In this document: positions 9,330 to 59,456 of the stretch, in pieces
Layout of the letters: each line of letters opens with the position of its first letter
How positions within the stretch are numbered: position 1 is the first letter of the stretch
Source: Euglena gracilis
Taxonomy: Eukaryota
Assembly (NCBI GenBank): GCA_039621445.1
Contig: CP154954.1
Coordinates: forward strand, 41,409,572 to 41,473,571
Direction: 5' to 3'
DNA: 64,000 nt
Notes under the pieces: model-generated
What the model saw: only the letters and a program-made list of their open reading frames with translations
What the model was told of the DNA's origin: nothing
The model's database searches: none
Translations under genes and position numbers: made by a program

Positions 9330-9530
9330 ATGGGTCAAAAAAACACCCGGCGCCGAAGGCACCGGAAAAAAATTTTCGGGTCCAAAAATTGGTGCTCCCA
9401 GAAATACGGGAAGAGGTGGGTGGGGGGTGGTCGACCCCCCCCCCCACCCACCACAGGGGGGGGGGGGGTGGTCGACCCCCCCCACCCACCACCCTGGCTG
9501 TTCGGCCGACTCCCGTTCTGCCCTGCCCCC
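9330..9530. repeat. Dispersed GC-rich repeat (GGTCGACCCCCC family)
   Basis: Similar copy at ~58110-58325; fragments at ~2770-2830 and ~8610-8660. Confidence 0.65.
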
Positions 9531-22745: not shown

Positions 22746-22845
22746 TAAATCAACAGACACTAACGATTTCAGCAGGGGCGCCGGGCCGTGCGAGCGAAGC
22801 GAGGGCCCGGCGCCCCTGCTGAAATCGTTAGTGTCTGTTGATTTA
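22746..22845. repeat. Perfect hairpin with 42-bp arms and a 16-nt loop containing GCGAAGC
   Basis: 22746-22787 is the exact reverse complement of 22804-22845. Confidence 0.95.
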
Positions 22846-22950
22846 CTAAAACCTATTTCGTCTGGGCCCGCACGCCTGTCTTGAAAATTCATTCGACCGA
22901 TGCACCTGGCTTGAGTTTTGGCCGGTTTTGTCGTTTTTTCAAGAAAACGT

Positions 22951-23202
22951 ACGCCGTCTTGGAAATCGTTTTACACTAACACATCCCTGTCTTGGAAATC
23001 GTTTTACACTAACGGATCCCTGTCTTGGAAATCGTTTTACACTAACGGATCCCTGTCTTGGAAATCGTTTTACACTAACGGTCGCCTGTCTTGGAAATCG
23101 TTTTACACTAACAAACGCCTGTCTTGGAAATTGTTTTACACTAACAAACGCCTGTCTTGGAAATCGTTTTACACTAACAAACGCCTGTCTTGGAAATCGT
23201 TT
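22951..23202 (+). repeat. 33-bp tandem array, ~7.5 units
   Basis: Unit CGCCTGTCTTGGAAATCGTTTTACACTAACAAA. Confidence 0.97.
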
Positions 23203-23252
23203 GCTCTTTGATGATGGTGATATGTTCTTCTTGTCCTCAGTTTTTGTTCTTA

Positions 23253-24270
23253 ATGGCTAAACGGGCGAACCTTGTGGCGTTGGCCGGACTGAAACCTCCG
23301 CCCCCCCTGAGGAATTTGTTGCTGCGATCCGCAAAATTTCTGAGGGCGGTAAGCAGGAGGCAGATGACCCGGTGAACGGCCCCTTGTTTGCTAAGAAAGA
23401 AACCAAGAGACTTTCCGGAGCGCAAGGCGTCCAACGATCCGGCATCCTACATTTTCTGACTTTTGTCGATTTTTGTGCGGATAACGGGTTAAAGTATGAC
23501 TCGTTGGACGAATATTTGCGAGGTTGGGCTCGTCGCACCATTTTTCCGGTGTATTTGTTTGACGATGAGGCTGACGTGGAAAGTTGCAAACAACAGCGGG
23601 CCACACAGAACTTCCCACTAAAGAACTTTCTGCAGACTCCTGGCGAAGTTATGTGAACGGCATGATGAGGGCGTACAATGCAACGGCCCCAAAAATTGCC
23701 TTGGCTGCCTTCGTGGATCGTCAATTTCCGTTGCTGAATGAATTTGCTGCCCCGGTGCTCAAACGTGAAAGAGGGGTGCGTGCCATGGAAGCAGCTCAAC
23801 GAACGACACCAGGGATTTTGACAGAGGAGGAACTTCTGTCCCTCCGAACGCGTTTTGACGCAAACAACGTTCTGCAGATGCAGCGGTGGAATTTGCTGAT
23901 TTTTGGATTCAGGACGGGTTTGCGTGCCGAGGTTTTGAGTCGGCTGACCACAAAATCCCTGTTGTTGAGCCAAGTTGATGGGCAAAAAACTCTGTCGTTT
24001 GTTGTGGGCTCTATGAAAAACATGCCCGCCGACATGGCCCACGATGCCCACTTGTTCCGCCAAGTTATTGCCCCCTCCCCAGACCCCTCCATTTGCGCCA
24101 TTGCGGCGTTTGAAAGGCAGTGCGAGCTTTTGCGTGGAACCGCCAGTTCCGCCTCAGGCGAGAACGATTTTTGTTCCGCACTGTGACTCTGTTTTCAAAG
24201 GCGCTTGGCAGCGGGCCAATTGGCGACGGGGTTTTTCGGGGAGTGGCCGACTGGGTCTCCAAATGTTTTG
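23253..24270 (+). pseudogene. Tyrosine recombinase, frameshifted and C-terminally truncated
   Basis: Box I LLIFGFRTGLRAEVLSRL, then a K in SMKN, SICAIAAF (CPVxAF-like) and DFLFR; frameshifts near 23305, 23590 and 24170; no HxxR or catalytic Tyr before the array begins. Confidence 0.75.
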
Positions 24271-24313
24271 CAACGCAAGGTCACTTTCAAACGCAAGGTC
24301 ACTTCACTTTGGT

Positions 24314-25760
24314 CTGTCTTGGAAATCGTTTTACACTAACGATCGCCTGTCTTGGAAATCGTTTTACACTAACGGTCGCCTGTCTTGGAAATCGTTTTAC
24401 ACTAACAAACGCCTGTCTTGGAAATTGTTTTACACTAACAAACGCCTGTCTTGGAAATCGTTTTACACTAACAAACGCCTGTCTTGGAAATTGTTTTACA
24501 CTAACAAACGCCTGTCTTGGAAATTGTTTTACACTAACAAACGCCTGTCTTGGAAATCGTTTTACACTAACAAACGCCTGTCTTGGAAATCGTTTTACAC
24601 TGACGGTCGCCTGTCTTGGAAATCGTTTTACACTAACAAACGCCTGTCTTGGAAATCGTTTTACACTAACAAATGCCTGTCTTGGAAATCGTTTTACACT
24701 AACAAACGCCTGTCTTGGAAATTGTTTTACACTAACAAACGCCTGTCTTGGAAATCGTTTTACACTAACGATCGCCTGTCTTGGAAATCGTTTTACACTA
24801 ACAAACGCCTGTCTTGGAAATCGTTTTACACTAACAAACGCCTGTCTTGGAAATCGTTTTACACTAACAAACGCCTGTCTTGGAAATTGTTTTACACTAA
24901 CAAACGCCTGTCTTGGAAATTGTTTTACACTAACAAACGCCTGTCTTGGAAATTGTTTTACACTAACAAACGCCTGTCTTGGAAATCGTTTTACACTAAC
25001 AAACGCCTGTCTTGGAAATCGTTTTACACTAACGATCGCCTGTCTTGGAAATCGTTTTACACTAACGATCGCCTGTCTTGGAAATCGTTTTACACTAACG
25101 ATCGCCTGTCTTGGAAATCGTTTTACACTAACAAACGCCTGTCTTGGAAATTGTTTTACACTAACAAACGCCTGTCTTGGAAATCGTTTTACACTAACAA
25201 ACGCCTGTCTTGGAAATTGTTTTACACTAACAAACGCCTGTCTTGGAAATTGTTTTACACTAACAAACGCCTGTCTTGGAAATCGTTTTACACTAACAAA
25301 CGCCTGTCTTGGAAATCGTTTTACACTAACGGTCGCCTGTCTTGGAAATCGTTTTACACTAACAAACGCCTGTCTTGGAAATCGTTTTACACTAACAAAT
25401 GCCTGTCTTGGAAATTGTTTTACACTAACAAACGCCTGTCTTGGAAATTGTTTTACACTAACGATCGCCTGTCTTGGAAATCGTTTTACACTAACGATCG
25501 CCTGTCTTGGAAATCGTTTTACACTAACGATCGCCTGTCTTGGAAATCGTTTTACACTAACGGTCGCCTGTCTTGGAAATCGTTTTACACTAACAAACGC
25601 CTGTCTTGGAAATTGTTTTACACTAACAAACGCCTGTCTTGGAAATCGTTTTACACTAACGGTCGCCTGTCTTGGAAATCGTTTTACACTAACAAACGCC
25701 TGTCTTGGAAATCGTTTTACACTAACAAATGCCTGTCTTGGAAATCGTTTTACGCTAACG
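24314..25760 (+). repeat. 33-bp tandem array, ~44 units
   Basis: Same unit as 22951-23202 with AAA/GAT/GGT and C/T variants. Confidence 0.98.
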
Positions 25761-26341
25761 GATTCAGCCTGAAATCTGCTACTGTCTGTAGAAATTCAAG
25801 ACAGGCGTCGGGCCCAGGAAATAGGTTTTAAGTCTCAGAATTAACAATTAACTGTCGGAAATCCCCCCCCCTCCACGGCTAGTTGATTAGTGGTGGTCGT
25901 AGTTAATTTGCTGACGTTGGTTTGCCAAACAACCCTGCAAAAGAGCTGAAAATAGGCCTCTTGTGTGAGATTGCGTGTGGCATCACACTTCAACATTAGG
26001 CGTGCTGTTTGTCAAAGGTCCTCCCCCCAACCCCAAATTCCCCCAAAACAGTTGGATTGATTTTGCCACTCCAAATTGTTCAACATTGTTCACCCCCCCC
26101 TTCCCTGGTGGTAAGCTTTGCTCTGATCTCTGAAGCGACCCCAACTCGACCTCCACTGTAATACCTCCACTGCAATGCCGCCCCTTTTTTGAGATTTAAG
26201 CCCCCCCTCCAAAATTCAATTTCTCTGAATTCTCTGAATTCGGTTCAAAATACAAACAAATCCGGGCGTTCCTGAAACGCCAAAAAATGTCCCATACTTG
26301 AAAATGCTGGTTTCTGTAGGAAACACCCGCACGGCGCAAGG

Positions 26342-27993
26342 CGGTAGACTGGGGGGGGGGGGTAGTGGGTAGTCGGCCGACTAGTCGGCCGACTACCCAA
26401 TTGGTCCACCGACTAGGCCTAGTCGGTAGCTAGTCGGCGAGACAGGGGGGGGGTAGTGGGTAGTCGGCCAACTAGTCGGCCGACTACCCACTCTAATGTA
26501 CTAACGGGTCAAAACCGCCGACTTTTAAGCCCCCCCCCCCCATGAACAAAATCCAATGGAAACTAGTCGGTGGCTAGTCGGCGGTCATAAAAATGGTCTG
26601 TGGCGGGCCCAAATCACCCGGAAATGGTCCGGATGGGTCCAAATAAGTGTCTTACGCCTAAATAAACACCCCCAGATGGAAATCTTTGGTCAGTGGGGGG
26701 TCGGTGGGCCCTTGATGGGGGTCCGGAGGGGTAAAAAACCAATGATGAAAAAGGGATTACATTAAAATCCTTTAGAAATGCAATCTGCAATCTGCGTTCT
26801 GCATCACGAGAGGCAGAAAACTCCCCCCTCCACCCCAATCCGAGACTCAAATAACAAAATCCCTTCTGTGTTGGCAACATACCACCTCCCCCCCCAACAT
26901 ACCAACCCCCCTCCCTCCCCCCTCATTGACCGTGGGACCTCTCCACGGGACCCCCCTTTTGGTCAATTAGGGGGGGGGTTCAATTAGGGGGGGTCACCGT
27001 AAATTTGTGGGGGGGTACCATCAATTAGGGGGTGCTTCAGCACGGAATCCCCCGGGTAGTCAATTACTTTGGCATAGGCGGGGGGGGGCTCCGCCCCCCC
27101 CGCACCCCCCCCCTCAAATAACAAAATCCCTTCTGTGTTGGCAACATACTCCGGGGTAAGTCGTTTTTGTGGCTCACTTTGGCATAGGCGGGGAGGGCTC
27201 CGCCCCCCCCCGCACCCCCCCCTCAAATAACAAAATCCCTTCTGTGTTGGCAACATACTCGGGGGCTAAGTCGTTTTTGTGGCTCACTTTGGCATAGGCG
27301 GGGGGGGCTCCGCCCCCCCCCCGCACCCCCCCCCCCTCAAATAACAAAATCCCTTCTGTGTTGGCAACATACTCGGGGGCTAAGTCGTTTTTGTGGCTCA
27401 CTTTGGCATAGGCGGGGGGGGCTCCGCCCCCCCCGCACCCCCCCCCCTCAAATAACAAAATCCCTTCTGTGTTGGCAACATACTCGGGGGCTAAGTCGTT
27501 TTTGTGGCTTACTTTGGCATAGGCGGGGGGGGCTCCGCCCCCCCCGCCCACCCCCCCTCAAATAACAAAATCCCTTCTATGTTGGCAATAGACTTGGAGG
27601 GATAAGACCCTTTTTTTGTGCAAATTTTGACTTATATTGAAAATTCAATGGGGAGAGGTGTACTTTTGTCAAAAGTGGCCCAAAATGGACATTTTCCCCC
27701 AATTTTTTTGCATATTCACCCCCGATTGGGGGGTTCTGGAGCCATTTGGGTGGGTATTGAACGGCGTTGAGGTGATTTAGACAAAAATTTTTTCCCAGGG
27801 GGGGGCTTAAAAGTCGGCGGTTTTGACCCGTTAGTACATTAGAGTGGGTAGTCGGCCGACCAGTCGGCCGCCTACGCCATCCCCCCCCGCCGACTAGCTA
27901 CCGACCACTTAGTCGGCCGACTAGTCGGCCGACCAATTGGGTAGTCGGCCGACTAGTCGGCCGACTACCCACTCCCCCCCCCCCAGTCTACCG
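26342..27993. mobile_element. Non-autonomous element with ~200-bp TIRs rich in the AGTCGGCCGACT palindrome and an internal ~120-bp tandem array
   Basis: 26342-26540 is inverted at ~27797-27993; 4-5 units containing CTCAAATAACAAAATCCCTTCTGTGTTGGCAAC at 27065-27590; no TSD seen. Confidence 0.8.
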
Positions 27994-34774: not shown

Positions 34775-35436
<662 letters not shown>

Positions 35437-35587
35437 ATGGATGTCCCGGCTCCATGAAGGCACTTACCTTACATGAGCCTGGTAATGCCGTTTCGGCATT
35501 ACATCCGTTCCAGCCGCCAATAATCATGGCGGGAGTCCAAGGGATCTTCCACAAGGACCATCTGGAATTGTGGTGGTGGTGGCCTAT

Positions 35588-38500
35588 CTACGAGCCAGGT
35601 TTCTGGCGATTCGTATTCGAAATCAGGTGCCACCCAGTCCCGAACCCATCCTTCGGGGACTGTGTGCTTGGTTGCACTCGCTCTTTCCGCGAGGAACCAT
35701 TGCAGCTTCTCCCAGAATTTCCTGGGCAGAGTGCTGGCCAGATGAAGTAGTTCATCCTTGGGTGATTGGCTGACACCTGCGGGGCATTCCCCGGGTGGAA
35801 GTCAATCGGCATGTGATAGGCGCATTCCGCCCGGACTGTATGGGGTCGTAATACGGCCCCAAGCCAGTCTTTCCAGGTCATCCCGTGTTTTTCGGGTGGC
35901 CATTGTGGCAAGCACCAGCGACCGTTTCGGTCCTGGTTTTGGAACAGGCGGAAAAGTATCTTTTCCCTGTCTGCTGTCTCCCAGAGGTAAGGTAATCTTA
36001 CCCCTGCCTCCTCAGCAGCGAGGCGTATCGCCCCACTGTCGATCTGCCACCCACGGGCCATTCCCGTGTGGCGGTAGTCGTCGAGCTTGAGGTTGGCATA
36101 CTTGAAAAAGTCCTTGAACTTTTTGTTCAAGGTGGAGTATTCCTCCAGTGGCTTCTCGGCACTTGGCACGATTGTGCGTACTGCGCCTTCCGCAGTGTGC
36201 CAGAAGGTACCTCGAAGGCAGTTGACGCAGAGAACTGGTACATTCGTACCGTCTCGGTCTGTGTAGCTGAAATTGTGCTTGTGGGTCCAACTGTCCACGC
36301 ACTTGGCGCATACCAAGGCGGCACAGTTAGGGATGTATACATCCTTGTGGAACGATTTCCGATCCACAGGGTTGCACACATGGACGAGGGGTAATCCCAG
36401 GTCAAGTGCACTGTTGTACATCTTGTGGCATACAGTGCAAAGCCACACAAAACGGTTTTCCGTTGTTTTGTCGATGAGGAATTCCTCACCGAAGAATTGG
36501 GCCAAAACACGGGGGGATCTGGAATTGTAATAATTCCAGGTCACATTCTGATCAAAGGACCATTTCCGTCCCTGACAGAACAGTGGCTCAATCCACCGGT
36601 TAAGGCATTGCTGTGTCCTCAATTTATGTGCAATCATCATGTACCTGTTTTTCAGGTCATGAATGTCAGGGTCATCCTGATTGATCGCGTTCCAGTCGAG
36701 GACAACTTCGTCTTCTGAAGGTGTCTCGGCTGTCGAGGCGCGGGATTTTCCCTGCCCCTTTGTCGGAGGTTTCGGCTGTGAGGTTTTCCCATAGCCGGAT
36801 GACGTGACATGCGTGAATCCTTGTCCCGAGGTTAATCCCCGAGAAGAGGATGCAGCACTCTGGCCGCCAGCACCACCACCGCCTTTCGGTGGGGGCTGAT
36901 CACCAGATTTCGGTGTGGGTTTGCAAGGTGTGGCGCCCGGTTTACTTTTCGCCGGGGCCTTCGGGCTTCCGGTTTCCGGAGTCTCCGAGGGTCGGCGTCT
37001 CGTTTGCTTGCCCACGTGCGTGGTGACGCTTGGGACGGGGGTCTTTTCCCCGACGCCGAACGTCGATGACCTTCAGCAGGGGTTTCCCGAGCTGATGGTC
37101 GTCCTACACGCTCCTTCGCGGCTCCCGAAGGTTTCCCAGGGGTAGCCGTGGGGGATGGTGTTGGTGTAGGCCTAGCCTGTGCACTTCGCGCTGGCTGAGC
37201 CTGTGGTGGAGGCATGGACGCCCGCTCGGCCTGTTTTTCAGGCGCCGGTGTCCGTGTGCCTTGACGCTTCTCTGCCGTGACTGTGGCTGTACCATGAGAT
37301 ACGGGTTCATCCCGTGCCTCCGGTGGTACCGCCGGTGTCGATACAGGTTCATCCTGTACTGACACGGCTGGTGTTGTCTCCACAGTCATTGCCGTCTGTT
37401 CGCCTTCCGTCCGTGTCGCTTCCGACACTGGCGGTGGCGCTGCCGTTGGGGACGGTCCCTACTCCACCATGGCTGCAGTGTCAGCTGTGTCTTCCGTCAG
37501 CTGGGCAGTTTCCGCCGCAGCTGTGGAAGAACTGGCCGCAGTGCCACGTGGAGTGACTACTGCGATCAGTGACCGTAAACCACCGAGTACGCGTCCGCCC
37601 AGCGAGGTGCGTCTCTCCTCACCTGAAGTGGGCTCCTCGGCTGGCTCCTCTGTTAACGGGGTTTCCCCGGAAACAGGGAGCTTGAGGCGTAATACCTCAG
37701 GCGTGTGGGGTACCGTTTCCGGCGGGTTTTCCCGCGGAGGGGTTGGTACACCCGCTGTACCCAGTGAGGCTGGTGATAGAGGGACAGGTGTCATTTCACC
37801 TGCTTGTGATCCTGGGTGTTGGGCGGTTTCTGCCACAGTATCCAGCATCACGACGGATGGGCTACGTGTTTCCCGTGCCGGAGGTTCCGCTGGCTGAGGT
37901 TGATCCTCGGCCATTGGGACCACTTCCTCCTCCTCCTCCTCCGCTTCCGGAGAGAATTCGGCTGCGTGTAGCTGTGCTGCAGAACGCGGGTCTTTCCCGC
38001 TCCTGTAGCACCCTTGTGCGTTTGACAGGCGGAAAAAGCTAATACTTTCACTCCTGTCAGAGTTGGGGTATGGGGGTAGGCCACGTCGCTCTCCCCCAGC
38101 TTTCGGGTGGAGGCTGTGGTTGATCATCGTCGATCAAGCAAAGGTCTTCCCACTGCCGTCGACAATGGTCAGTCACGCCAAACTCTCCTGTTTCTTCCAG
38201 GAATGCTGGCAGTGGCAACGCGTAACGAGGGACTTCCCCTTCGTGCGCCGCGAAAAACATCTGAAAATCCTCCCATATCAGGATATTCCCGAATTGGGTA
38301 TCCAGGTGTTCCTGGAGACCGATTTCGGCCTCTTCCCAGTCTGGTCGCAGGTTCATCCTGCGCTGGTCTGGGTCATTGGGTCTGGCGTTCACCTCCATAT
38401 ATCCCCGAGGCAACCACTTTCTGTGGATTTCCACATCGGCGGTCATATATTCCAGGAAATATATGTAGACCTCCAGGACGTAGGTAATCCACGCCCTGTG

Positions 38501-40940
38501 CCAGTACTGCTGCAGCAGAAATATTTTCTGCCGGTGCTGTTTCAGCACCTTTCGGTCTTGCGTTCCGATCTGGGGATTCCGGCACTGATGCAGGAGGAAT
38601 CTCCTGGTCGGCTGGCTGCCGGCATTCTCGGCAGACGGAGGCGGTTTTCCGCGTTCTCCGAAACCCCAGAAGTCAACGATGTGGACTTCCTTGCAAAACT
38701 GGCATTCCAGTTTGTACCGCTGGGGGTACGCGAGGTCCACGTCCAGTACCTTGAACAGCATGCCATACATGCTGTCCAAGAAGACTTGGAGGTTGTTCGT
38801 GAACATTACCGCAGCCTGCGCCTGGAGTTTCTCCGGCAGGGGGTAATACTTCCACTGGATTCCCAGTGCGCTGACTGAAAACATGTGGTTGAAGATTTCC
38901 TTCAACTGTGCGACGAACGTTTCGCCGTCTTCACAGGTATTCAGGCAATCGATATACGTCAGACCGTTTCGGTCGGTAAAAATGCCGAAATTCTGGCAGG
39001 GGTATCCCAACCAGAACCACAGTTCCCAGAAACCAGGCATCTGGTCCAGGACAACTTCATTCGAATGAGGGTATCCCTCGAACGCATGAAGTTCGGCACT
39101 GTAGAAAAAACGTTTGCAGTGATCGTTCATACGATTCTGCACCACTTCGAGCACCGCATCCGGTGGTCGGTGGATCACGTTGCCTGCCCTTGTGAACTTT
39201 TGGAGATCCTCGTCGATTTTCGGCCAGATCTCCTCCAGGTACTTGAACACTGAGGCAACGTCATAATCCTTCGTTTTCGAAGGTTCGGCGGCTTTCCCGC
39301 CCTTGCCTGCTGGGGCTCCGGCAGATTTTCCGCCTTTGCCTGGAGCTGGCCAGGCGGCTTTTCCGCCTTTGCCAGCTGAGGCTTTCCCACCTTTCTCCTT
39401 GCCTTTTCGTTTCCCCTTACCCTTGCCCTTTACCCTTCACCTTACCCTTTGTGTTAGACAGCCATTCAAAGGTCGCCCGGTATGGGTCAAAGTATTCCCA
39501 GTATTCTGGGTCTTCTGGTGTAAACACGGGGTAAGTCACGGATTCCGTGCTTGGTGTTCGAGCAAATTCCTGCTCAGCGTCACCACGATTCGAGTAAACC
39601 GGTGCGACTGGGGATGGTCGGGTTTCCCGACGTGCCCGTTCTGCCGTCACGTCTGGCGCTGGCGGAGCTTCCTCCTCAGCGTCGACGTGCATCGCCGCGG
39701 GCGGATTTTCCGACCTCGGCGAGCGGCGCTGTGGCTGCGGCGTCAGATTTTCCGGGCCGCGGTCACGCTTGCCGGCGGCAGAGCTTGTGGGCCGTGCTGG
39801 AGGCGCTTCCGCCACAGCAACGTCCTGCTGTCGCGCTGGTTGACTTGATCGTGATGGAGCTGGGACTCCTGTGAGAGCCGACACAGCAGCATCATACTGC
39901 TGGCGCTCTTCCCGTGTCATTTCCGCCCGGGCAGGGTATCCCTGGCCAGCGGAAACAGGGGGGCGACGTGCGATTTGTCGTTGGATCGTCACAGCATATT
40001 CATACTGTTGACGCTCCTCCTCAGTCTCAAACGGCCGGCCAGTCCACGGGTTAACGGGTTCATCCCGTACCGGGGGAACTGGTGCCGCACGAGGCGCTGC
40101 CGCGGCTTCCCGCGGACGAGCGCTTCGGGCAGAGTCAGACGTCGGGGGAGGATTTCCCTCCGCAGGACGTCGTGGGATAGGGTCAGGTATGGTTGGGTGG
40201 GGTTGAGGTGGATATACGTACTGATCCCGTGGCATTGGCGCCTCCTGGGGGTAATCCCCAGAGACGGTATACTGAGACACAGGCTCCTGCGCAGGATAAT
40301 CCCGCCGGGGCATGCGCTCAGGGGATCGAAAAATACTTTCTTTCACACGTGGGTGTTCACTCCGGACAGGTGCTTCCACTGTCTCTTCCTCGGGTAATCC
40401 GGGGGAGTGAGCACGAAAATGTGCAGTGTAAGTGCCAACTGGTGGTACCTGCCGTGCGACCTGTGGCGGGACTTCCACGCCCAGGTCACGCATGGTAATG
40501 TCTGCCGCGAATCCCGACGCGTCCGGGTCGGTGTAATACACCAGACCGGTCATCGTCGCCTGGGCGCACATACACCACAGGGCTGGAGGGGTATTCGCGA
40601 TGGTTAAAATTTTACGGCAGTGGTCATCCCACAATGCCTGCGTGAGGTGGTCTGGTGCCGGGTTTGCGCTCATACGCATAACCCGGTTCATCGTCTTCGC
40701 CGTGCGGTGGATCATCACACCCGCATACGGTGGGAGGCGACGAGAGCCTGATGGCTGAGATGGCCGCGCTTCCGCGGGCATCTGGGTCATCCTGCTACTG
40801 CTGCTGGCTTCAGGGTTTCCCTGAGCCGCAGTCCGTGCAGGTGGCTGCGTACCGTATCGGTACGCATACTGGTCAGGTTGAGGGTGAGTGGTGGGGTGGT
40901 AAGGCGGTCCTCCGCCTGGCTCCCTTCCACCGGGCAGCAT
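35588..40940 (-). pseudogene. Large unknown ORF (~1,780 codons) downstream of pol, split into five pieces
   Basis: ORFs 39417-40940, 38057-39250 (frame open up to ~39428), 37459-38127, 36832-37428 and 35588-37015 join through three frameshifts and one in-frame TAG; two Trp/Cys-rich globular regions with CxxC motifs. Confidence 0.7.
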
Positions 40941-41103
40941 GATACAGCCCGGGGTCGGTACGGTGGGATGTTGGGGTTGTTGGTTGTAAGGTGTGTGAGG
41001 GTAACCGCTTGAGTATTATTTGGTAAAATGTCTGCGGAAAGAAATAATGATAAGAATCAATGATAAAAAGAAAAAGAAAACAACATGGGTTTCCCATGCG
41101 TTC

Positions 41104-42420
41104 TCAAAAACTTGTCATGGAAACATTAATATTATGCTTCTTGTTCCACAGCTTCCAATCCTGTTGGACATACCCAACAAAACTGGTTGCTGGCTCCCAA
41201 GTGTCCTCCTCGGGCCCATACCCTCTCCAGCGGACCTTCCAAAGGTGCATACCTTTGTCGATTTTGTGATCGATAATTTTATCGACTACAAAGTCGTCCG
41301 TCTCAGGTAATCTGGAACGGGGTTTGAAGTGCAAACACGGGATGGGTTTCCCATCCGGTGGCGACAGGTATGGTTTGAAGTCGTCCATATGAACGTCCTC
41401 AACACCATTCGGTAATGCAACCTTGTAACGCCCGCTGGTACCTAGTCTTTCTAGGATTTCACAGGGGCCGAGCCAGAGGGGGTCCAGATTGGAAGACTGC
41501 ATGCGAGTGCGGCTATTCCGCACCCACACACGGTCACCGGGGCTATACACAGGTGACTTGAAATTCTGCCAAAACGGTTTCCGTTTGGTTGCATGAATAT
41601 CAGTGACGCGCTTCTGGACTGCAGAACGTAGATTTTCTACTTCCGCAAACCAGGTCTCGCAACTGACACTCGTTCGGGCGGGTCTCTCCGAAGGGACATC
41701 CCCTATGGCCGGAGGGTCCCGTCCGAAAACTAATTTATAAGGGGAGTGAGGTAAAACCAACCCTGGTAGGGTATTGATATAAAACAAAGACCATGGTAGA
41801 ACTGATATCCAGTTGCTGCGCGAGTCAGCCAGTGAAAGGCGAAGCATATTCACGACGGATTTCATGGCTGCCTCGGCTCTACCATTGCCTTTGGGTCGGT
41901 ATATAATGAAAAAATGTTGCTCGATTCCGAGTAAACCACACAAAGTGGTGAAAAACCTTGAAGAAATCAAATGGTCTTGATCACTCACGATTTCATTCGG
42001 TAAACCCATTAAGCAAATGCATTTCTCCAAAAATATAGTTGCCAAACTTTGGGCAGTCAACCCTGACTTCTGGCATGGAATGGCTACAATGTACCCACTC
42101 AGCCTGCAGACGACAACAAAAACGTAATCGTAAATTTTGTCGTCCGTTCCTTTGCACGGTTCTAATTCCAGAAAATCCATGCAGAGGGATGTAAAAATGT
42201 CAGGGGGTACGGGGAAAAAGTCCATCGTACCGGGGGGGGGGTACCTCTGCGGGGTTTTACAGCTTGACAAATTTGACACCGTTGCGCTATTCGCAAACAG
42301 CGTGAGTAAAGCTCTTTCTCGCTCAGGGTTGTGCAATACCTGCGGCCCACCAACGAAAGAAGTTTGGGGGCCCCAGGGTGACCATGGTTGTGATAACACA
42401 AAATCACATCATCAACCAGG
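41104..42420 (-). pseudogene. pol: pol: integrase (HHCC, DDE core, GPY/F-like motif) and C-terminal chromodomain
   Basis: HNHGHPG...CQIC; SLCMDFL, IVSDQD, NGRAE; WLGPCEI; FVVDKIIDHK...KVRWRGYGPEEDTWEP; frameshift in the G-run at 42232-42241. Confidence 0.95.
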
Positions 42421-42789
42421 TCCTGGGGAATACAATATTTGTAACCCGATTCATTGCGAAAAACCAACCGTAAAGGTGAAAGAGTGTAATTGTCCAGCAC
42501 TTCGCCATTACGAAGTCTGGTGACAATGGTGTCATACACCGGATCACGACTATAATCCCATTCGCGAAAGAACAGTGGGGAAGGGGACTCCGTGCGCGTA
42601 ATACGCCGGGGTCCGGACGTGCTTCCACGTCGGCGCCTTCCGCGCACTGGTGCGACCAGGAATAGTTGTGAAACGGGAAAAGAATCCAAAAGATTATCCG
42701 CAGCGTCGTTTCGACGTGCGTATTCGTCAGCTTCCTGACTTCCATGAAAAGTCGCGTCTCCCTCATCCGGGTTCCCAGGGTAATACCAA

Positions 42790-44100
42790 GGGGCCCGACT
42801 GAGCGGATCCGCTACTTTTTGTGTGTGACCAGGGGTATAAATAACCACAAGGTTGAATTGACTCAAGAACTCATGCCATCTGCATCGCCTTCCGACCGAT
42901 GACATGGCCTTGTTCAAATCCTCGGTGTACCAGTGTTGGAGACTCTCATGGTCGGTCTTGACGAGGATCTGGACGAGGCTGCTGGCTACCCAGCTTCGGA
43001 ATTTCTGGAGTATAAGCACGATTGCGTAGGTTTCCTTCTCGCGTATACTCCATTTGACTTGACCTTTTCCATCGTCGCCCTGTAACTTTCTGCTGAAGAA
43101 AGCCACAGGTCGGAGCTCATTCGCCGCATTATGCTGGCTAAGAACTCCGCCAACAGCGTAATCGCTGCTGTCGACTTCCAACACGTATGGTTTGTAGGGG
43201 TCCGCGATTTCGAGGACAACATTCTCCAAAAGCAAAACCTTGATTTTCTCAAGGGCCTCGCGCATTTGGTCATCCCAAATGACTTTGGTGTTGTCAACAG
43301 CCCGGTTTTTGAGCTGTTTGGTGAGGGGCACCGCGATTTTCGCGAAGTCCTTCATATAAATCGCGTAGTATTGGGCTAATCCCAAAAATCCTTTGAGGTG
43401 TGTAATCGTTTTGATTACCTCAGGGGTCCATTTCTTAATGGCTTCGAGTTTACTCGGAGCGGCTTTCCGCTGTCCATTGCTGAGGATGTGACCGCAAAAT
43501 TTTATGAGAATCCGAAACAAATGCATTTTCGCGCCTTTCGCGAAAAGCACATGTTTTTGAAAGGCGGCTAATACCGCGCAAACATGGTGGAAGTGTGTGA
43601 CGAGGATATGGCAAACGGTAAATCGCGTAGAACCCATTGTATCATGCGCTGAAACATGGCTGGGCCATTCTTAACACCCATGGGGAGTACCGTCCATTGG
43701 TACACACCCTTGGATGTCACGAATGCCGAGTATGGTTGTGAGTCAGGGTAGGGTGCAAGTGCATTTGGTGAAAACCGTCCTCCAGATCGAAAATTGACCA
43801 CAACCGGTTTTCCGATTGTTTGGTGATCAAATCCTCGATCAGGGGGAGCGGGAAGGGATCATCCCTTGTTTGGGAGTTCAGGTACCGGTAATCCAGCACC
43901 ATTCTCCATTTCTTCTGACCGGAGGGGTCTGGGGGTTTAGGAACAACAAATGCCTGGGATTTCCACTCGCTTTTCGAGGGTACAATCCACTTGCGCTGAA
44001 TAAGCTTCTCAATCATTTCATTGAGAGCTTGTTCGCGTTCTCCCGAACAACGAAAAAAATTCCGGTGCATTGGTTTGGCTCCATCCTTAAGCTCGATCTT
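42790..44100 (-). pseudogene. pol: pol: reverse transcriptase and RNase H
   Basis: KWRMVLDYRYLN, FDLEDGFHQ, LPMGVKNGPAMFQR, FLGLAQYY, VDSSDYAVGGVLSQ, EKETYAI, TDHESL, VADPLSR; 5-bp duplication frameshift at ~43750 and YxDD missing at ~43605. Confidence 0.95.
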
Positions 44101-44309
44101 ACAAACACCGAACGGACCGCGTATCGCGGGGTCGATGTCGCACGCGTATACTGGATTTTCCAGCACACCGTGAAATTCGCGGGTGATCCGCGAACAGAAT
44201 TCGGCTGACTTAGGATGCTGACCTGCACTCTCGATGACTGCGGAAACCACCAGGGTATCCCTGGGGCTACCGAGCTTCCTCGGCACCGCGAATTCGGACA
44301 TTCCGAATG

Positions 44310-44715
44310 CATCGAAGAAACATACGCGAAAAATGATTTCTTGCAAGGGTGGTAATATTTTACCACAAAAATCCTCAAAAATCGGTACATTAGTGGGTAA
44401 ATCCCACCAATAAAAACATACATACGATAGTTGGGTGAACCATTCCGCTTCCGGAATGATGGGTATGAGAATAACTCCACGGGCTTCATCCCGCAGAATT
44501 TTCTCAACCGCACATTCGATAAGTTTTGGGGGAGGGTGCATCCATAACACCGTATCACCCCAAAATTTATCAAATGCGTTGGAGTGTTGTGACCAATGAC
44601 GTGGCAAACGGGCATGTGCATTGGATGAAAAGGCATCGATTTCCAATGCCAAATCAAAAGAATCAGCCAATGTCGCGATTTTGGAAAACCATCGTTCCAA
44701 AATGCGATATTGACC
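44310..44715 (-). CDS. pol: Dam/DIRS-type N6-adenine DNA methyltransferase-like domain
   Basis: IDAFSSNAHARLPRHW...NAFDKFW...LWMHPPPKLI...VEKI...GVILIP...EWF follows the DxFA...DAF...W...[N/F]PP...K...ILIxP...WF motif order of DIRS/phage Dam-like MTases. Confidence 0.75.
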
Positions 44716-45519
44716 AAAATTGAAAGCATTCCATACGCGTTTCGCGTATTCATGCACCCGATTTCCGGGTTGGAGTGAAGAAACACAATGAATGGATCCA
44801 CAAACATGCGGGTTGTCTTCCACTACCTCAAGGGATAATCCCAAGGGAGTTTGGACAAGTTGGGGTTTTCCCCATTCCGCATCAAATTCATACCAAGTGT
44901 ACTCGGGATGGTGATTAGGCATGACGCTTTTCGCGTTTCCGAACAACGAGGCTAATCCGCGTTGTTGGAGAACTCGGTGTATCTCCGTGCACTGCGGGCT
45001 ACAACTAAGTGTATCCTGGGGTGTGGATTCCGCTTTCAGAATGGCGATTAGTGTCGGATTTTGAACTAAACATCCACAATCGAAATCCGATTGGGTGGAA
45101 ATTCTCCTGCAGTGCACACATTGGAAGGAAGTGTGTTGGTGTGACAGGTGTGCGTGTAAGTGGGTGTCGATGGCATTAGCCGGTGAGTCTTGTACAGGTG
45201 TGCCTGGATTCGGCACAACTGGTGGGAAACGGAGTGGTGGTGTAGCTGGGCGACTACTCGACACCGTAATTTCTTCAGGCCTTTGGGCTTTCGTCTTGTA
45301 ACCCAGTGAAACGGCGGGGGTACCGCTACTGGCTTGCCCTGCCTCATGTGGAACGCATGTTGGTGTGTCGTTGGGCAGGGGGGAGGCTTTCTCCGTACCC
45401 CGGGTGTGGAAAACGGTTGTTGGTGTGGTGGTCATCATGGCGGATGTCAACGGTGATGGTGGTTTGGGTGTCAATGAAGTGGTGGGTGCTGTGCGCAAAC
45501 CGTGGGAGTGGCAATCCAC

Positions 45520-46059
45520 AACCAATCGGTACTGGCGTAAAAATGGGTATCCCAAAATTACGTCAGACCCGTGAATTCCGGACTCGTAACCCCAAATATT
45601 GGTGAAATGTTGTAATTGTGGGGGTTGTGAGTGATGCTTCGGAATGATGGGCAAGAGTATCTCGAGGACACATCCCAAATCACCACCACACATGAGGGTG
45701 TTATCCGCGGTTGTAATTTTGATCGGTTTCTTGGCGCTTACCAAGAGCGGGGTCGGTATCAACCCCAACCGAAAGAGCAGTGCAATGCGACAACCAGTGT
45801 CAATGAGAATTTTAACTTTCGCGGAGAAATTTTGGATGCGGATTTCCGCTTGGACAAGTAATTCCATTGGTGGTACGCAAAGTGAAGGGTCTGGCGGAAA
45901 TACGTTTGCATGCCAGCTCTCCCATGAACCCTTTCCTACTTTGCTCAGCATTCCGAGCGGAAATGTGGAGTGGGGGGTAGGGGACCCGAAATAATTCCGG
46001 GTACTGACCGTGAAGGCGGATGGGCAGGGGGGGCAAGGTTGATCAGGTCTTACCTCCAT
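45520..46059 (-). CDS. pol: pol: aspartic protease region
   Basis: ILIDTGC active-site motif and a downstream DVILGYPFL. Confidence 0.9.
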
Positions 46060-46068
46060 CTGTTCATC

Positions 46069-46107
46069 AGCCCAGAGGTCCGTGCCCTCGGACCTCGGGC
46101 TCCCCTA
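46069..46107 (-). promoter_or_regulatory. Putative gag-pol stop-codon readthrough signal (UAG-GGG plus stem-loop)
   Basis: The gag TAG (46107-46105) is in frame with pol; AGCCCGAGGTCCG pairs with CGGACCTC(T)GGGCT starting 3 nt later. Confidence 0.7.
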
Positions 46108-47559
46108 CTCCAAGTCCGAACCGGCCGCATAGCCGGCAACGGACTTTTTGGTGGAATAGATGGAATTCAATGAGCGCACCGCCATTCGGGCCTCATTAAA
46201 TTCCCCGTCCGAGGTCTCATCCCCCTCCCTGCCCGAAGCCGGAGGGTCCTCCTCCAAACAAGATATCTTGAAACCGACCTTTTGCCGGTTGGAGGAGTAA
46301 CCACGGTCATCGCGGCGCTTACCGCGATTTCCGTAGCCGGGCCGGGGGGAACGAGATCTGGGACATTTGGATGCGTGGTGATCTTTGGAACCGCAAAGTG
46401 AACAACGGGATTTGTGGCGGGATTCCGCATAACGGGGGGAACGGTATTCCGTTCTTCCGTCGAACCGTCGTGGTGAACGGGTTTCCCGTCGACCATGACC
46501 GGTGTACCGGGGTTTCCCCGGTGACTCCCGCGAAGAGGATGATCCACTTCGCGAACGAGATCGTGAAGAGTCGCGATTGAAATCCCGTTTTCGGGTAGGG
46601 GGTCCAGGTGACCGACCGCGAGAAGGACGGGTTTCCCGACCATCACGCGATGGTGACTTGGGCCTACTACCGCTAAAGCGGTTCTCCGAAGAACGTGAAA
46701 CTCCCGATTGACGTGAAAACGCCGAGGAACCCGATCCCCGTGAGGAGGTCGAGCCCCTTGGGCTTCCAATACGCTTTCGCGCATCGGGATTCGGGCATTC
46801 CCGAGACATGTGACCAGATTTGTTGCACAAAAAGCACAGTTTATCCGTGCCTTGGTCCGAAGAACGCTGATTCCGCGTTTTCGATCCCGTGGTGGGTGAT
46901 CTTGGTGACATGGGTGATTTTTGCAACGCATTAACCGCACCCGCAGGGATTCCCGCGGTGGGATGCGTTTGGAAAGCGGACTGTATTTGTCCCAAAACTT
47001 GTGTGAGCTTGAGTTGCTTTGACACATAATTCCAACGTTGGGCAAGAGTCATCTCATGCCCTGCCAACTCCTCGCGATGGATATCCTTCACGAGGGATGG
47101 TGTGAAATGCAACAAAACCGCATCGAATTGTTCGCGCATTTGCTTCTCGCTAAGTTCATCAACTTCGGAAGCAAGTGCTAACCATTTGGCATACCAAAGG
47201 TCAATGGATTTCCATTTGCGATCCGATGGCGCGAATTGTCGCCATTTCTTCTCCAGGGTAATCCTGGTGACCAAACTTGAGTTAGTTGAAGCGTATTGCT
47301 CAACCAGGTTATCGAATGATACACCATTACGTAGCACCAAATTGCGTGCGCGTTCTCGCTCCTCCCTCGGTAGGCAATCGATAAATTCCATCTTGACTAC
47401 CTCGGGATTCGGGTCTTGGGTGGGTCCCTTTAGTGCCCAGTAATACTCCCAGTCCGGAAAAAATTGTCTCCATGTGGTTCGCTGACGTCTTGTCTTGGTT
47501 CGCCTTCGTTCTAGACTCTGTTCCTGTCTTCTGGGTTGTCGAAGGTCAAATTTTTCGAA
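46105..47559 (-). CDS. gag: Gag with two CCHC zinc knuckles and an Arg/Ser-rich nucleocapsid region (true start unclear)
   Basis: CFLCNKSGHMSREC and CSLCGSKDHHASKC; the frame stays open upstream of the 47391 ATG (WRQFFPDWEYYW) to 47559. Confidence 0.9.
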   Translation of the reverse strand, partial: FEKFDLRQPRRQEQSLERRRTKTRRQRTTWRQFFPDWEYYWALKGPTQDPNPEVVKMEFIDCLPREERERARNLVLRNGVSFDNLVEQYASTNSSLVTRITLEKKWRQFAPSDRKWKSIDLWYAKWLALASEVDELSEKQMREQFDAVLLHFTPSLVKDIHREELAGHEMTLAQRWNYVSKQLKLTQVLGQIQSAFQTHPTAGIPAGAVNALQKSPMSPRSPTTGSKTRNQRSSDQGTDKLCFLCNKSGHMSRECPNPDARKRIGSPRGSTSSRGSGSSAFSRQSGVSRSSENRFSGSRPKSPSRDGRETRPSRGRSPGPPTRKRDFNRDSSRSRSRSGSSSSRESPGKPRYTGHGRRETRSPRRFDGRTEYRSPRYAESRHKSRCSLCGSKDHHASKCPRSRSPRPGYGNRGKRRDDRGYSSNRQKVGFKISCLEEDPPASGREGDETSDGEFNEARMAVRSLNSIYSTKKSVAGYAAGSDLE

Positions 47560-50056
47560 TCAACAAACTTCGGCGAAAAAGGCACTGAGCAGCAACGCCT
47601 TTCCCAGCGCCTCAAAACAATCCAAGCAACACCGCCGGCTCACAAGGGAAAAGTGCGGAGCCCGAGGCGTGTGTCCCTCCCTCCCTTGTCGGTTTTTCCT
47701 CGAGGGAGTGCGGCAATTGGTGGGCTTCCCCGGAAAAGGGGGGGGGGTCCTCCGGTCTGGATGGGTGGTAAGACCCTGGCCCTTAAAAAAAGGTGCATGT
47801 TGCTGCCTTTCCTAGCTCAAGTTCTTAAGAGGGTTCGTAAAGGGATTGCAATGACGAAATCGCAAGAAAGCAAACAGCCAGTGGTGCACATAAATGGTTC
47901 AAGGAAACTTGGGTAAGAATTTCCCCACACGGGATTCCTCTGTAACATAAACAAACACACTCAGGCACAAATGTGTGTTGTGAGTTTTGTGCATGCATGT
48001 GGGGTTGCGTGGGTGTGTGCAGCGCGCGCATATAAGGCGTGCATATGAGAGTGCTTCCATGAATGCGTGCATATATGTGCGTTTATGTGTGCTGGTTTTG
48101 TTGTTGTTTTTTGTGTTCTCTGATGACTGCTGGAATAACTTCAATTTATGTTGCGTCATCATGTCAAGGCGGCAGAGCGGAGGGTGGATGGATGGATGGG
48201 TGGGCAGAGGTTATCAGGAGAAGCAAAGAATATGAGGACAAATGACACACCATGCAGACAGCGGCAGGGGCCATGTGCACAATCTGGACAAATATGGACA
48301 AGCTGTGGCCACACATCGAGCCGCTGCCCCGAAAAAATAATAGGAAGACTGAAGCGGCTGGCAGCGGCACAGCGGGCAAATGAACAGACACCATTTGTGG
48401 TGGGTGAGAGTGAAGGGCATGGTCAACTGACGGACAGCAGCTCTCACCTCCAGGCGGGGGTTTCTTCATGTTGCCACTGAGGTCTCTCTGTGGGTCCTGG
48501 AAAGAACCAGGCAAATATCTACGAGAACCTCTGGGCTGCTGCCGCAATACCCTAGTGCGTTGGTATGTGGCTGGAAACTGTTTTTTTGGGGCAAGTTGGG
48601 ATCAGTTTATGACAAAGAACGGTAGAAAATGCACACCAATTATGGCAGATAATGCCCCCAAAATTGCCCTAAAACGGCCCACTCGACCACTCCTTCCTGT
48701 AAATCAAATTCACACACCAATTCATACTTTTTTTTTATTATACCAAAAATAGCGAAAAATGGCCCCAAAAAGGGAGGAAAGGCCCCAAAACAGATTCAGA
48801 TGGCCCAAACTTGACCATGCAGTCGAAACGTGCGGGAATGGGCAATTATACTGCGCCAAACTCCTGCAGAACCTCGAAATATGCGCTAAATATGCGAAAT
48901 ATGCACAAATATGCGATTCTTGGACAAAAAAAGTGAAATATGCACTAAATGTGCGAAATATGCGCAAAATATGCACTCTGCATATTCCCTCCCCCCTGTC
49001 TGATGGGCTACTGGTATCCTAATCTGCACAGGCGCAGGCACAGCCACCTTACAGGGGACCCGAGTGTCCCCGCAGCCAAGCCATCGCACCCATCAGCCGC
49101 CCATAGGGGCCGGAGCCCTGCCTTGTCAGCAGGGCTGTCCAGGGAGTCCTGGTCGGGGGTCGACCCCCCCCAGAAGGTGTGGATTAGACAACCCTCCCTC
49201 CCAAATAACTTTGCAGTGTCCTAAAGTTTTGTGTGCCTGAAGAACTTTGCAGGGGGGAAAGCGTAAAAAGATCGGTCCAAATAACTTTGCCCCCCTCCCT
49301 TTTCAAGGAAAAACCGTGAAAAATGATGCATCTTTTTGGGAAATCAGGAGGTGGCAAGGACAAAAAATCATCTGAAATGCCATAATAATCTATTATTAGA
49401 TGAATATAAATATTAAATAATATCACAAATATTAGTGAAACAAATTTCTTTTAAGAAGCGTGGTGAATCAATCCATCAATGGTTTTGGGTACTGCCCAAA
49501 TAAATTTGCAGGGGATTGGGGCCAAAAAGATCGGTCCTAACGTTGCAGGGGGCAAAATTATTTGGGGGGGGGTTACCACCGAGGGTTCCTGGTTCCCGGT
49601 CAGCCCTGCTTGTTGGGGATGGGGCGGAGGCTGGCCTGGCCAATGGTTCTGCCGGCGCCATTTCCGCAGATGATGCCCTGAGGCAAGACGGGTGCATGGC
49701 CTACACCGCGGCAGCCCCAGTGCAACGTCCAGACTTCTTTTTTTATCAACCCCTGGTGGGAGTGCCTTGTGCCGTGGGGTGCCTGTCCATAGCAGGCAAA
49801 CCGTCCCAAGAGTGGTCAGTTTTGGGCTCGGCTGCCTGCCGACCCAGACAAATTATCCTTGTGGGCCATTTTCGCGCCCCCAGCACATTGGCGCTGGGGG
49901 TGGAAGGGTGTGCTACAGCAGCCCCCGACCCCTCCTGCCTGCATCCACCCTCCGGGGGGGGGGTGCGAACTTCCTGATAAAAAGCCCAGCAACAACCTTC
50001 TCGGTGGGAGACACAAAGAAAATGGGCCAGCCGGCCAGCGGCAGCACGGGGCGCAC

Positions 50057-50230
50057 CGCTGCGGGGGCGGCAGCGGCGGGCGGTCGCCGGCGAACCGCGG
50101 GGGGAACGACGTGGCCCCGTCGAAGATGCAGAGCCGGCGCGGGCCCTCTGCCTCCGGGGGCGAGGGAGGGGCGGGGGGTGGGGGGAGGGGGGCGGTGGGC
50201 GACGGCTCTGCCCGGCCGGGGGGCGGACCC
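50057..50230 (-). CDS. FDGA-repeat protein exon (174 nt, phase 2-2)
   Basis: CCACAG acceptor, GTGCGC donor; encodes RRLCIFDGATSFPPRF. Confidence 0.8.
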
Positions 50231-50724
50231 CTGTGGAGGATGGGACGGGCGGTGGGAGGGGGGGGGGGGGGGGGGGGGGCTGGGGTTGAAATGGGAGGTG
50301 TCAGAGAGGGCCATGTGTGATGTGCACGTTTGTGGATAGGGTTCAACACTTGGGGCAACTCTGGTGCGAAGCAACAGAGGCAGAAACATCTGCAGAAAGA
50401 CATTTGAGTTGGATGAAAACAAAATGCGAATTCCTGTGGTTTTCTAGAATGATTTCTCAAGGGGATATCAGCTTTTAGGTTTGAAAATTATTTTTCTTTT
50501 GCTCATCCAATCTCCTCGATTTCAACTTTCTAAAAATTTGATCTTTTCTTCAAATATGCCTTGATGCAAAAAAAAAACTGCCAGATGAAATAGAACCACA
50601 TGGTCACATGACACCTGTGCCCAAAGGCATTGCCATTATATATTACCACAAATCCTGAGTGCAAAATAAAAAAATGCGTTATGAACTTGTGGGTCCAGAG
50701 ATGCGCAAATGGACAGGCCACGCA

Positions 50725-54474: not shown

Positions 54475-54804
54475 CTGACGGGGGAGGAGAGGGGCGACCG
54501 AGGCCAGGGCCCATGAGCCCATTTTATTTTTCACAACGTGCAGGGGCTGCCCGCAGCACAGGCTGGAGAAGCAGTGTGGAATGCGGCCCTGGTTGGGGCG
54601 GGTGGGATGGTGGGGCCACTGCCGGAGGGGAAGGGGGGCGGCCGGCGGGACCCTCGGCGGACCCCCTGAGTCGGAGCAGACGCATGTTGCCGGACCGTCT
54701 GGATTGTCGTCGACGGTACTGTCAGACAATGCGTGTGCCATGGATTGGAAAGAACCGGAAACAGGCAGGCACGCCGGGCAAGCCAGAGGCTGCACGGGGC
54801 GCAC

Positions 54805-54978
54805 CGCTGCGGGGGCGGCAGTGGCGGGCGGTCGCCGGCGAACCGCGGGGGGAACGACGTGGCCCCGTCGAAGATACAGAGCCGGCGCGGGCCCTCTGCC
54901 TCTGGGGGCGAGGGAGGGGCGGGGTGTGGGGGGAGGGGGGCGGTGGGCGACGGCTCTGCCCGGCCGGGGGGTGGACCC
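54805..54978 (-). CDS. FDGA-repeat protein exon (174 nt, phase 2-2)
   Basis: Near-identical to 50057-50230, with AG/GT ends. Confidence 0.8.
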
Positions 54979-59088: not shown

Positions 59089-59262
59089 CGCTGCGGGGGC
59101 GGCGGCGGCGGGCGGTCGCTGGCAAACCGCGGGGGGAACGACGTGGCCCCGTCGAAGATGCAGAGCCGGCGTGGGCCGTCCGCCTCCGGGGGCGAGGGAG
59201 GGGCGGGGGGTGGGGGGAGGGGGGCGGCGGGCGACGGCTCCGCCCGGCCGGGGGGCGGACCC
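59089..59262 (-). CDS. FDGA-repeat protein exon (174 nt, phase 2-2)
   Basis: Third copy of the 174-nt exon; CCACAG acceptor, GTACGC donor. Confidence 0.8.
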
Positions 59263-59456
59263 CTGTGGAGGAAGGGGCGGGCGCGGGTGGGGGGCGGGGG
59301 GGGGGTGCCTGTGGTTGGCTGTCCTGGGCCATAGCAGAGCACGTTATCTGCCCAATGTATCCGCCAGCAAGGCTTGAGACCCGCCACCAGGCGTGGGGGT
59401 GGCGGGCCGCTGGGTGCACTGCTGACCCACGCGATGTGTTGCTGACCCCGGCGCAC

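Follow-up and report, generated by a model that had tools for sequence, protein, structure and literature searches.

The locus described here raises two questions: whether a very large coding region lying behind the pol gene of a retrotransposon is a gene of that element, and what kind of protein it may encode. It was found in a stretch of 64,000 nucleotides of Euglena gracilis (GenBank assembly GCA_039621445.1, contig CP154954.1, positions 41,409,572 to 41,473,571 of the forward strand), which is called the window below and whose own numbering is used throughout. Stop-to-stop reading frames and Pfam matches revealed a copy of a Ty3/gypsy-type retrotransposon on the minus strand of this 64-kb window. 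Its gag and pol are followed by the region in question, which we name open reading frame 3 (ORF3). A previous sequence-only reading had placed there a co-oriented ORF about 160 bp after the pol stop, with some 1,780 amino acids if repaired, and our measurements agree with it: pol and ORF3 are co-oriented, the spacer from the pol stop to the ORF3 ATG is 163 nt, and ORF3 runs on the minus strand from its first ATG at 40940 to its end at 35588, giving 1,784 codons. On balance, and with modest confidence, we favour the reading that ORF3 is a genuine non-env third gene of a chromodomain Ty3/gypsy element, possibly one with a Dam-like domain, and that it encodes, with a leaky UAG, a disordered, zinc-binding accessory protein with basic tails, which would be nuclear or bind nucleic acid.

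Five stop-free minus-strand pieces tile positions 41015-35588. They were designated A (39417-41015, 532 amino acids), B (38057-39436, 459 amino acids), C (37459-38133, 224 amino acids), D (36832-37458, 208 amino acids) and E (35588-37072, 494 amino acids), and joining them takes three frame changes and the passage of one in-frame TAG (37459-37461). The change from A to B falls where the two open frames overlap (39417-39436), inside a Lys-Gly simple repeat of AAGGGN-like units. That from B to C (38057-38080) is a one-base indel in a C-rich stretch of Pro codons, and that from D to E lies within a 240-nt overlap of two open frames (36832-37072). The corresponding coding segments are A (39420-40940, 507 amino acids from the ATG), B (38060-39436), C (37462-38133), D (36835-37458, in the same frame as C) and E (35591-37072), the last one closed by the terminal TAG at 35588-35590.

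Judged by its sequence, ORF3 is real coding sequence, at least in B and C. The longest stop-free run has 532 codons, while the longest runs of 200 shuffled sequences averaged 185 codons and never exceeded 349. The guanine plus cytosine (GC) content by codon position was periodic in every ORF3 piece (0.69/0.57/0.54 in C and 0.73/0.66/0.51 in D), the phase was the same on both sides of the stop between C and D, and the amino-acid composition also carried on across this TAG. A word-indexed protein search with B gave one match, P0001 (319 amino acids, JGI, from a 1,013-bp contig), which shares 238 of 247 residues (96%) with the end of B and runs on into C in one frame, with 64 of 77 aligned columns identical. 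P0001 supports the first 94 residues of C as coding and is unbroken at the passage from B to C; therefore, that break is peculiar to the present copy or its assembly.

An exhaustive HMMER search with B against 1.84 billion representatives added six proteins at E ≤ 1e-3, with E values of 2.7e-25 among fragments and of 3.2e-8 for a protein of 27% identity. P0002, P0003 and P0005 are short fragments of closer copies, with 50-65% identity to B. When these three were compared with the window DNA by tblastn, P0003 and P0005 matched it in two frames and are therefore decayed copies themselves; several decayed and diverged copies in other data are as expected for a repeat. P0004, P0006 and P0007 (470, 332 and 419 amino acids, respectively) look intact and share 27-29% identity with B over 140-180 residues. 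Their contigs, from ENA metagenomes, are 2.0-2.5 kb in length, and those of all the relatives range from 0.9 to 2.5 kb. With a profile of the family, the word-indexed search scored 8,000 candidates and recovered P0004 alone, itself a member of the profile. In addition, a leaf-litter metatranscriptome run contained 23% of the sampled words of the region; RNA runs with a small share of these words say nothing about expression or habitat.

The core of B, a globular domain rich in Trp (15 Trp and 9 Cys in about 390 residues), defines a small unannotated family. The alignments of this family showed invariant or nearly invariant G.D..P.FW...F, N, D, GI, YPQ, C-x2-C, FWG and R. The putative zinc site of B is C245-x2-C248...H283-x-C285, encoded at 38582-38704. 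In the three distant relatives an H-x-C follows shortly after the CxxC, and in the window the HQC comes after a longer insert. In P0007 a Lys-Gly-rich stretch precedes the domain, as it does in the window. Zinc binding is plausible because the CxxC...HxC of B is kept in relatives at 27-29% identity, and the site is probably zinc-ribbon-like. In this regard, the CxxC...HxC stretch of P0006 repeatedly attracted sub-threshold models of zinc-ribbon type (Lar, primase zinc finger and GpA, E 0.04-0.19), and the other zinc matches below threshold were Zn_ribbon_10 on E (E 0.084) and the RNF141 RING (E 2.8). The sequence-only reading had proposed an accessory zinc-binding protein, perhaps one with an anti-silencing role or a partner of a methyltransferase that is itself assigned from a Dam match below the Pfam threshold; a co-oriented, non-env coding region after pol is indeed present and its zinc site is kept in relatives, while zinc binding as such stays at the level of the plausible.

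More than half of the ORF3 protein is low-complexity. Segment A begins with a Pro/Gln/Tyr-rich region (N-terminus MLPGGREPGGGPPYHP), which is followed by a small Cys/His region with AGVMIHR...DHCRK (about 40620-40724) and CMC, a Pro/Ala/Arg/Glu-rich linker of about 260 residues, an aromatic EDPEYWEYFDPY motif and the start of the Lys-Gly repeat. This repeat spans the A/B junction, with about 55 amino acids of it in B. Segment C is an acidic linker rich in Pro, Glu, Ala and Thr, and D a basic one rich in Pro, Ala, Thr and Arg. Segment E starts with a basic tail of about 115 amino acids carrying Ser/Thr-Pro-Lys-like motifs, and its core is a Cys/His/Trp-rich globular region of about 340 amino acids (15 Cys, 17 His and 15 Trp) with the Cys cluster CTVC-x16-HVC...CAKC...CVNC at about 36197-36439. 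Globular regions separated by Pro/Ala-rich and Lys-Gly linkers, as had been described, are thus seen in the translation, and the motifs lie where they had been placed, with CQFC...HQC in B and CTVC, CAKC and CVNC in E. The motif AGxxIHR...DHC[RK], given as occurring near 40720 and 39185, was found at residue 98 of A (about 40724) and residue 84 of B (about 39187), with DHC[RK] after each. A true internal duplication is weakly supported, because the local alignment score of 33 was reached by 27 of 500 shuffles. The distant relatives echo only the first part of the copy in B (G..[DI].RPP), and hhalign comparisons of the B family with E and with A found them unrelated.

No transmembrane segment was detected across the five pieces, the highest Kyte-Doolittle mean over 19 residues being 1.16, and no signal peptide was found at the N-terminus of ORF3, which is not hydrophobic. 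ORF3 is therefore not a typical env, as the first description had also held. Neither A, B and E nor the relatives gave a match at threshold in Pfam, PHROGs or NCBIfam. Searches by sequence in the PDB, with the B-family alignment and with E, returned nothing significant, and in the protein atlas the best scores (0.76 for E and 0.77 for B) were within noise. DUF6604 (PF20253) was considered for B and rejected: its atlas score of 0.77 is in the range of shuffled proteins, and PF20253 did not appear at E ≤ 0.1 for B or at E ≤ 1 for the relatives.

The in-frame TAG of ORF3 has a counterpart within the same element. At the gag|pol boundary there is a single in-frame TAG (46105-46107), and gag and the protease piece share one frame; in ORF3, C and D also share a frame and are parted by one TAG, that is, by an in-frame UAG with coding continuing beyond it. 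The contexts are GTGGAG TAG GGA in ORF3 and CTTGGAG TAG GGG at gag|pol, so that both stops are followed by G-rich purines (UAG GGA and UAG GGG A, respectively). The common 10-mer TGGAGTAGGG, which covers the candidate read-through site of ORF3 at 37457-37466, has two matches in the 64 kb with both strands counted. These are the ORF3 TAG and the gag|pol TAG, both on the minus strand. The expected number was 0.08, and none of 100 shuffles had two or more; the 8-mer GAGTAGGG has one further match in the window. In the gag|pol region (46020-46112, minus strand), a 13-bp hairpin follows the GGG after the TAG (z -2.98), and only 1 of 200 shuffles was equally stable. The gag|pol TAG is likely a programmed leaky stop for Gag-Pol, with a signal in the style of murine leukaemia virus (MuLV), and the ORF3 TAG would probably be a second use of this read-through signal. 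The 10-mer shared by the two TAGs ties ORF3 to the element and suggests programmed read-through. Additionally, TAG as a sense codon was ruled out, since the stop-to-stop frames, with some 4,100 codons in total, contain no more than two TAGs in frame.

The gag-pol of the element extends over 41107-47559 on the minus strand. Its frames correspond, in order, to gag, which has CCHC knuckles (46108-47559); to a piece comprising the protease motif, the weak Dam-like match and the N-terminal part of the reverse transcriptase (RT) (43720-46104); to one with RNase H and the zinc domain of the integrase (42165-43670); and to one that holds the core of the integrase, its SH3 and its chromodomain (41107-42408; Chromo, E 2e-10). 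The pol stop is a TGA at 41104-41106. The Pfam matches in pol follow the order RVT_1 (partial), RT_RNaseH, Integrase_H2C2, rve, SH3_Tf2-1 and Chromo, which is the chromovirus order. RVT_1 was matched at profile positions 2-88 of 205 only and no YxDD was visible in the translation; the RT core appears to be partly deleted (42160-43720, minus strand). Frame changes in pol were located near 43700 and near 42300, and, because of them and of the partial loss of the RT core, this copy is non-autonomous. The Dam-like segment lies between protease and RT (about 44431-44670, minus strand). It matched PF05869 weakly, over profile positions 22-105 of 169 and with 19.3 bits where the cut-off is 28.1 (E 9.3e-4), and a PDB sequence search with it gave no significant match. 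By eye, the likely equivalent of Asn-Pro-Pro seems to read His-Pro-Pro-Pro, in a damaged copy. The copy as a whole is damaged: ORF3 has three frame changes and pol has further ones, the RT core is incomplete, and long terminal repeats (LTRs) could not be recognised. Decay is similar in pol and ORF3.

The spacer that separates pol from the ORF3 ATG (40941-41103, minus strand) was examined as sequence and in its three frames. A hairpin lies directly after the pol TGA (fold of 41019-41106, z -3.07), and 4 of 200 shuffles were equally stable. Next come a T-rich tract, some 45 nt long and closed by a CAG near 40985, and then one stop in the ORF3 frame. The T-rich tract with CAG is splice-acceptor-like and could serve as acceptor for a subgenomic mRNA. 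On the other side, about 130 nt past the ORF3 stop, the sense strand of the element has a (GA)n polypurine microsatellite followed by (TA)n (35050-35450). This (GA)n run may be an expanded polypurine tract, as it stands where such a tract would be expected; no 3' LTR was recognisable beyond it. Two further observations concern the same end. A compound microsatellite, reading (TA)n and then (CT)n on the plus strand, occupies 34800-35460 and abuts the 3' end of ORF3, and a strong splice-donor-like sequence, AAGGTAAGT, is found about 100 nt past the ORF3 stop (35450-35480, minus strand).

Several results weigh against the favoured reading, and the alternatives have to be considered together with them. 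That ORF3 was captured from the host, is a neighbouring host gene or belongs to another mobile element, and just happens to stand beside a truncated gypsy copy, is in our view rather unlikely, although a number of points would fit it. No direct repeat pair that could represent flanking LTRs was found around 35.5-48 kb (blastn, word size down to 7); as no LTRs delimit the element, the inclusion of ORF3 is not proven by element boundaries. The GC content at third positions is 0.587 in ORF3 and 0.517 in gag-pol (z 4.5) and the AT skew shifts at about 40 kb, near the pol/ORF3 border, both of which would fit a separate origin. P0004, P0006 and P0007, proteins of 330-470 amino acids with no visible transposable element domain, have a stand-alone look. 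Sibling loci with flanks were sought with B and the B-family alignments in viral, metagenome and prokaryote contigs, and with E and the integrase piece in viral contigs, and none was confirmed. Yet ORF3 is on the strand of pol and begins 163 nt past its stop, the 10-nt stop context that it has in common with gag|pol occurs nowhere else in the window, its decayed and diverged copies elsewhere (the frameshifted P0003 and P0005) are repeat-like, and a polypurine tract comes after its stop. Moreover, a gene captured and later integrated into the element would be compatible with our explanation.

The programmed nature of the ORF3 TAG is the part of the favoured reading with the strongest competitor. 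This codon could simply have arisen by nonsense mutation in a damaged copy, as one more inactivating change (for instance TGG changed by G-to-A in a GG context) in what was, when intact, one ORF or two separate ORFs. We regard this as possible, if doubtful, and somewhat more probable than a separate origin of ORF3. The three frame changes of ORF3, those of pol and the defective RT speak for it, as does the fold after the ORF3 TAG, where the hairpin is weaker and 22 nt downstream (z -1.83; 10 of 200 shuffles equally stable). cDNA deaminases can turn TGG in a GG context into TAG-GG by a G-to-A change, and the GG after the TAG is such an editing context. It must also be considered that TGGAGTAGGG was picked after both sites had been seen. 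On the contrary, mutation leaves the five identical upstream bases unexplained, with a 10-mer expectation of 0.08 per window, and the roughly 1,780 codons contain a single in-frame TAG, which lies within a linker between modules. For E, no relatives were found in the word-indexed search (limited to 271-865 amino acids), the protein atlas or a locus scan of viral contigs; therefore, nothing indicates selection on E. The structure models add nothing in favour. The AlphaFold and Foldseek analysis that had been suggested for the B and E regions did yield models, but too poor for use, with a predicted local distance difference test (pLDDT) of 44.9 for the B core (alignment of 9 rows; values of 65-85 in no more than about 90 residues, near the YPQ-CxxC strands) and 31.5 for the E core (single sequence). 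The fold search with the B model (VIA wide) gave generic long-helix matches only, with Z ≤ 5.1, and Foldseek against the PDB and viral models gave no match at E ≤ 0.001. With such models the fold searches carry no weight, and no fold supports any function. An env-like gene for cell-to-cell transfer is very improbable: it has in its favour the position after pol and the acceptor-like T-rich tract with CAG, MuLV env being translated from a spliced mRNA (PMC5778647), and nothing else, while the protein is devoid of signal peptide and membrane segment and the B model, poor as it is, matched no viral model at the Foldseek cut-off. Finally, it is scarcely credible that the open frames arose by chance in GC-rich, skewed sequence that encodes nothing. 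Much of ORF3 is low-complexity and antisense open frames of 180-289 amino acids are also present, but the HMMER matches of B at E 2.7e-25 (fragments) and 3.2e-8 (the 27%-identical protein), the 96%-identical P0001 bridging B and C, and the periodic codon-position GC already refute this for B and C.

Taking ORF3 as a third gene of the element, it can be compared with systems already described. LTR retrotransposons of bdelloid rotifers carry non-envelope ORF3s (Rodriguez, Kenefick and Arkhipova 2017, PMC5408684). Both cases have an extra co-oriented non-env ORF after pol in gypsy-type elements, a modular capture of accessory genes. The rotifer ORF3s are, however, GDSL esterases/lipases, DEDDy exonucleases or env-like, whereas that of the window has about 1,780 amino acids, is mostly disordered, matches no known family and, in a further difference, may contain an internal leaky stop. 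Chromovirus-like LTR elements carrying DAM (DAM-LTR, 'EpiLTR') were described in a preprint (10.64898/2026.05.21.726589). The DAM domain of DAM-LTRs has a conserved Asn-Pro-Pro catalytic triplet, and some EpiLTRs add a cytosine methyltransferase at the pol 3' end, within the pol ORF (10.64898/2026.05.21.726589). The element of the window resembles them in its Ty3/gypsy backbone, its chromodomain and, possibly, a Dam-like domain inside pol, but its added module is a separate ORF with no methyltransferase similarity and its Dam match is below the Pfam threshold. The main text of that preprint (10.64898/2026.05.21.726589), searched by words, makes no mention of an ORF like ORF3. Plant Retand elements have ORFs with TRP28 in the region between POL and the 3' LTR (Vicient 2025, PMC11963269). 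The likeness consists in a post-pol region of several kb with extra ORFs of unassigned function, predicted to bind DNA, and often with tandem repeats; the Retand ORFs are antisense, have a TRP28 domain and belong to non-chromovirus elements, while ORF3 is sense and has no Pfam match.

Regarding the stop codons, in gammaretroviruses the gag and pol genes lie in a single frame and are parted by a read-through UAG (PMC4178896), and in Moloney murine leukaemia virus the G-rich purine spacer following the gag UAG is functionally important (PMC13517186). The window shares with the gammaretroviral gag UAG the in-frame position, the G-rich purines, a predicted RNA structure downstream and the prospect of a minor extended product (PMC4178896, PMC13517186). 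In contrast, the gag|pol hairpin of the window starts about 3 nt after the stop, and gammaretroviruses have an 8-nt spacer. The window also differs in having a second copy of the stop context inside an accessory ORF, for which no report turned up, the literature not having been searched for it specifically. With the env of retroviruses and errantiviruses, ORF3 has the position after pol in common, but it is without signal peptide or transmembrane anchor. ORF3 is thus another accessory ORF, set apart by its size, its unannotated domains and its duplicated stop context.

Lys-Gly repeats, basic tails with Ser/Thr-Pro-Lys-like motifs and clusters of Cys and His are typically seen in proteins that bind nucleic acid or chromatin. 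From the composition of ORF3 we infer a nuclear accessory factor that would bind nucleic acid or chromatin, rather than an enzyme of a known class. Its linkers would join three compact parts, which are the N-terminal Cys/His region, the central Trp-rich B domain and the C-terminal Cys/His/Trp-rich domain. Translation would most likely start from the ATG at 40940, on a genomic or a subgenomic mRNA. If the UAG at 37459-37461 is leaky, an abundant short product A-B-C of about 1,160 amino acids would be made, together with a rarer read-through product A-B-C-D-E that gains the C-terminal zinc-rich domain, in parallel to Gag and Gag-Pol. If the chromodomain and the Dam-like segment of pol are taken into account as well, the simplest guess would be that this accessory factor works in the nucleus, on the nucleic acid of the element or on chromatin at insertion sites. 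A bolder version, which we consider speculative and rather improbable, is that ORF3 is a second unit of Gag/Gag-Pol style, in which the UAG signal of gag|pol would set the ratio of an abundant disordered scaffold, A-B-C with its new zinc-ribbon-bearing domain family, to a rare extended form with the orphan Cys/His-rich domain, and that it would form, with the integrase chromodomain and the Dam-like methyltransferase, a chromatin toolkit that marks or protects insertions.

In the rest of the window, Pfam gave no match on 20 other long open frames, and Rfam nothing at gathering scores. Several repeats were recorded. A 33-bp minisatellite forms two arrays (22822-23352 and 24182-25770), the larger of about 1.6 kb with units 93-98% identical. 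A 239-nt repeat occurs three times (50034-50272, 54782-55020 and 59066-59304), spaced about 4.3-4.7 kb apart and with 88-94% identity, and may be part of a larger tandem unit or represent LTRs of other elements. A predicted tRNA-His (9413-9490, minus strand) overlaps a 94-nt repeat rich in runs of C and G (9436-9529), which recurs 48.8 kb away at 58234-58327 with 83% identity and may be a tRNA-derived short repeat. The tandem repeats at 27080-27557 (unit about 110 bp) and 62810-63306 (unit about 166 bp) have short similar stretches in common.

Accessory genes of LTR retrotransposons show how these elements gain functions, and most of those known are env genes or recognisable enzymes. ORF3 is a 5.4-kb gene of unannotated domains in a type of element, a chromovirus that may bear a Dam-like domain, that was recently proposed to manipulate host chromatin. 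The core of B gives access to an uncharacterised protein family, so far known from environmental assemblies only. Among the new points, the one best open to testing is the stop context common to gag|pol and ORF3: if this UAG context works, it would be a case of a retroelement reusing the device that sets Gag-Pol stoichiometry for an accessory gene, by means of a short and testable RNA signal.

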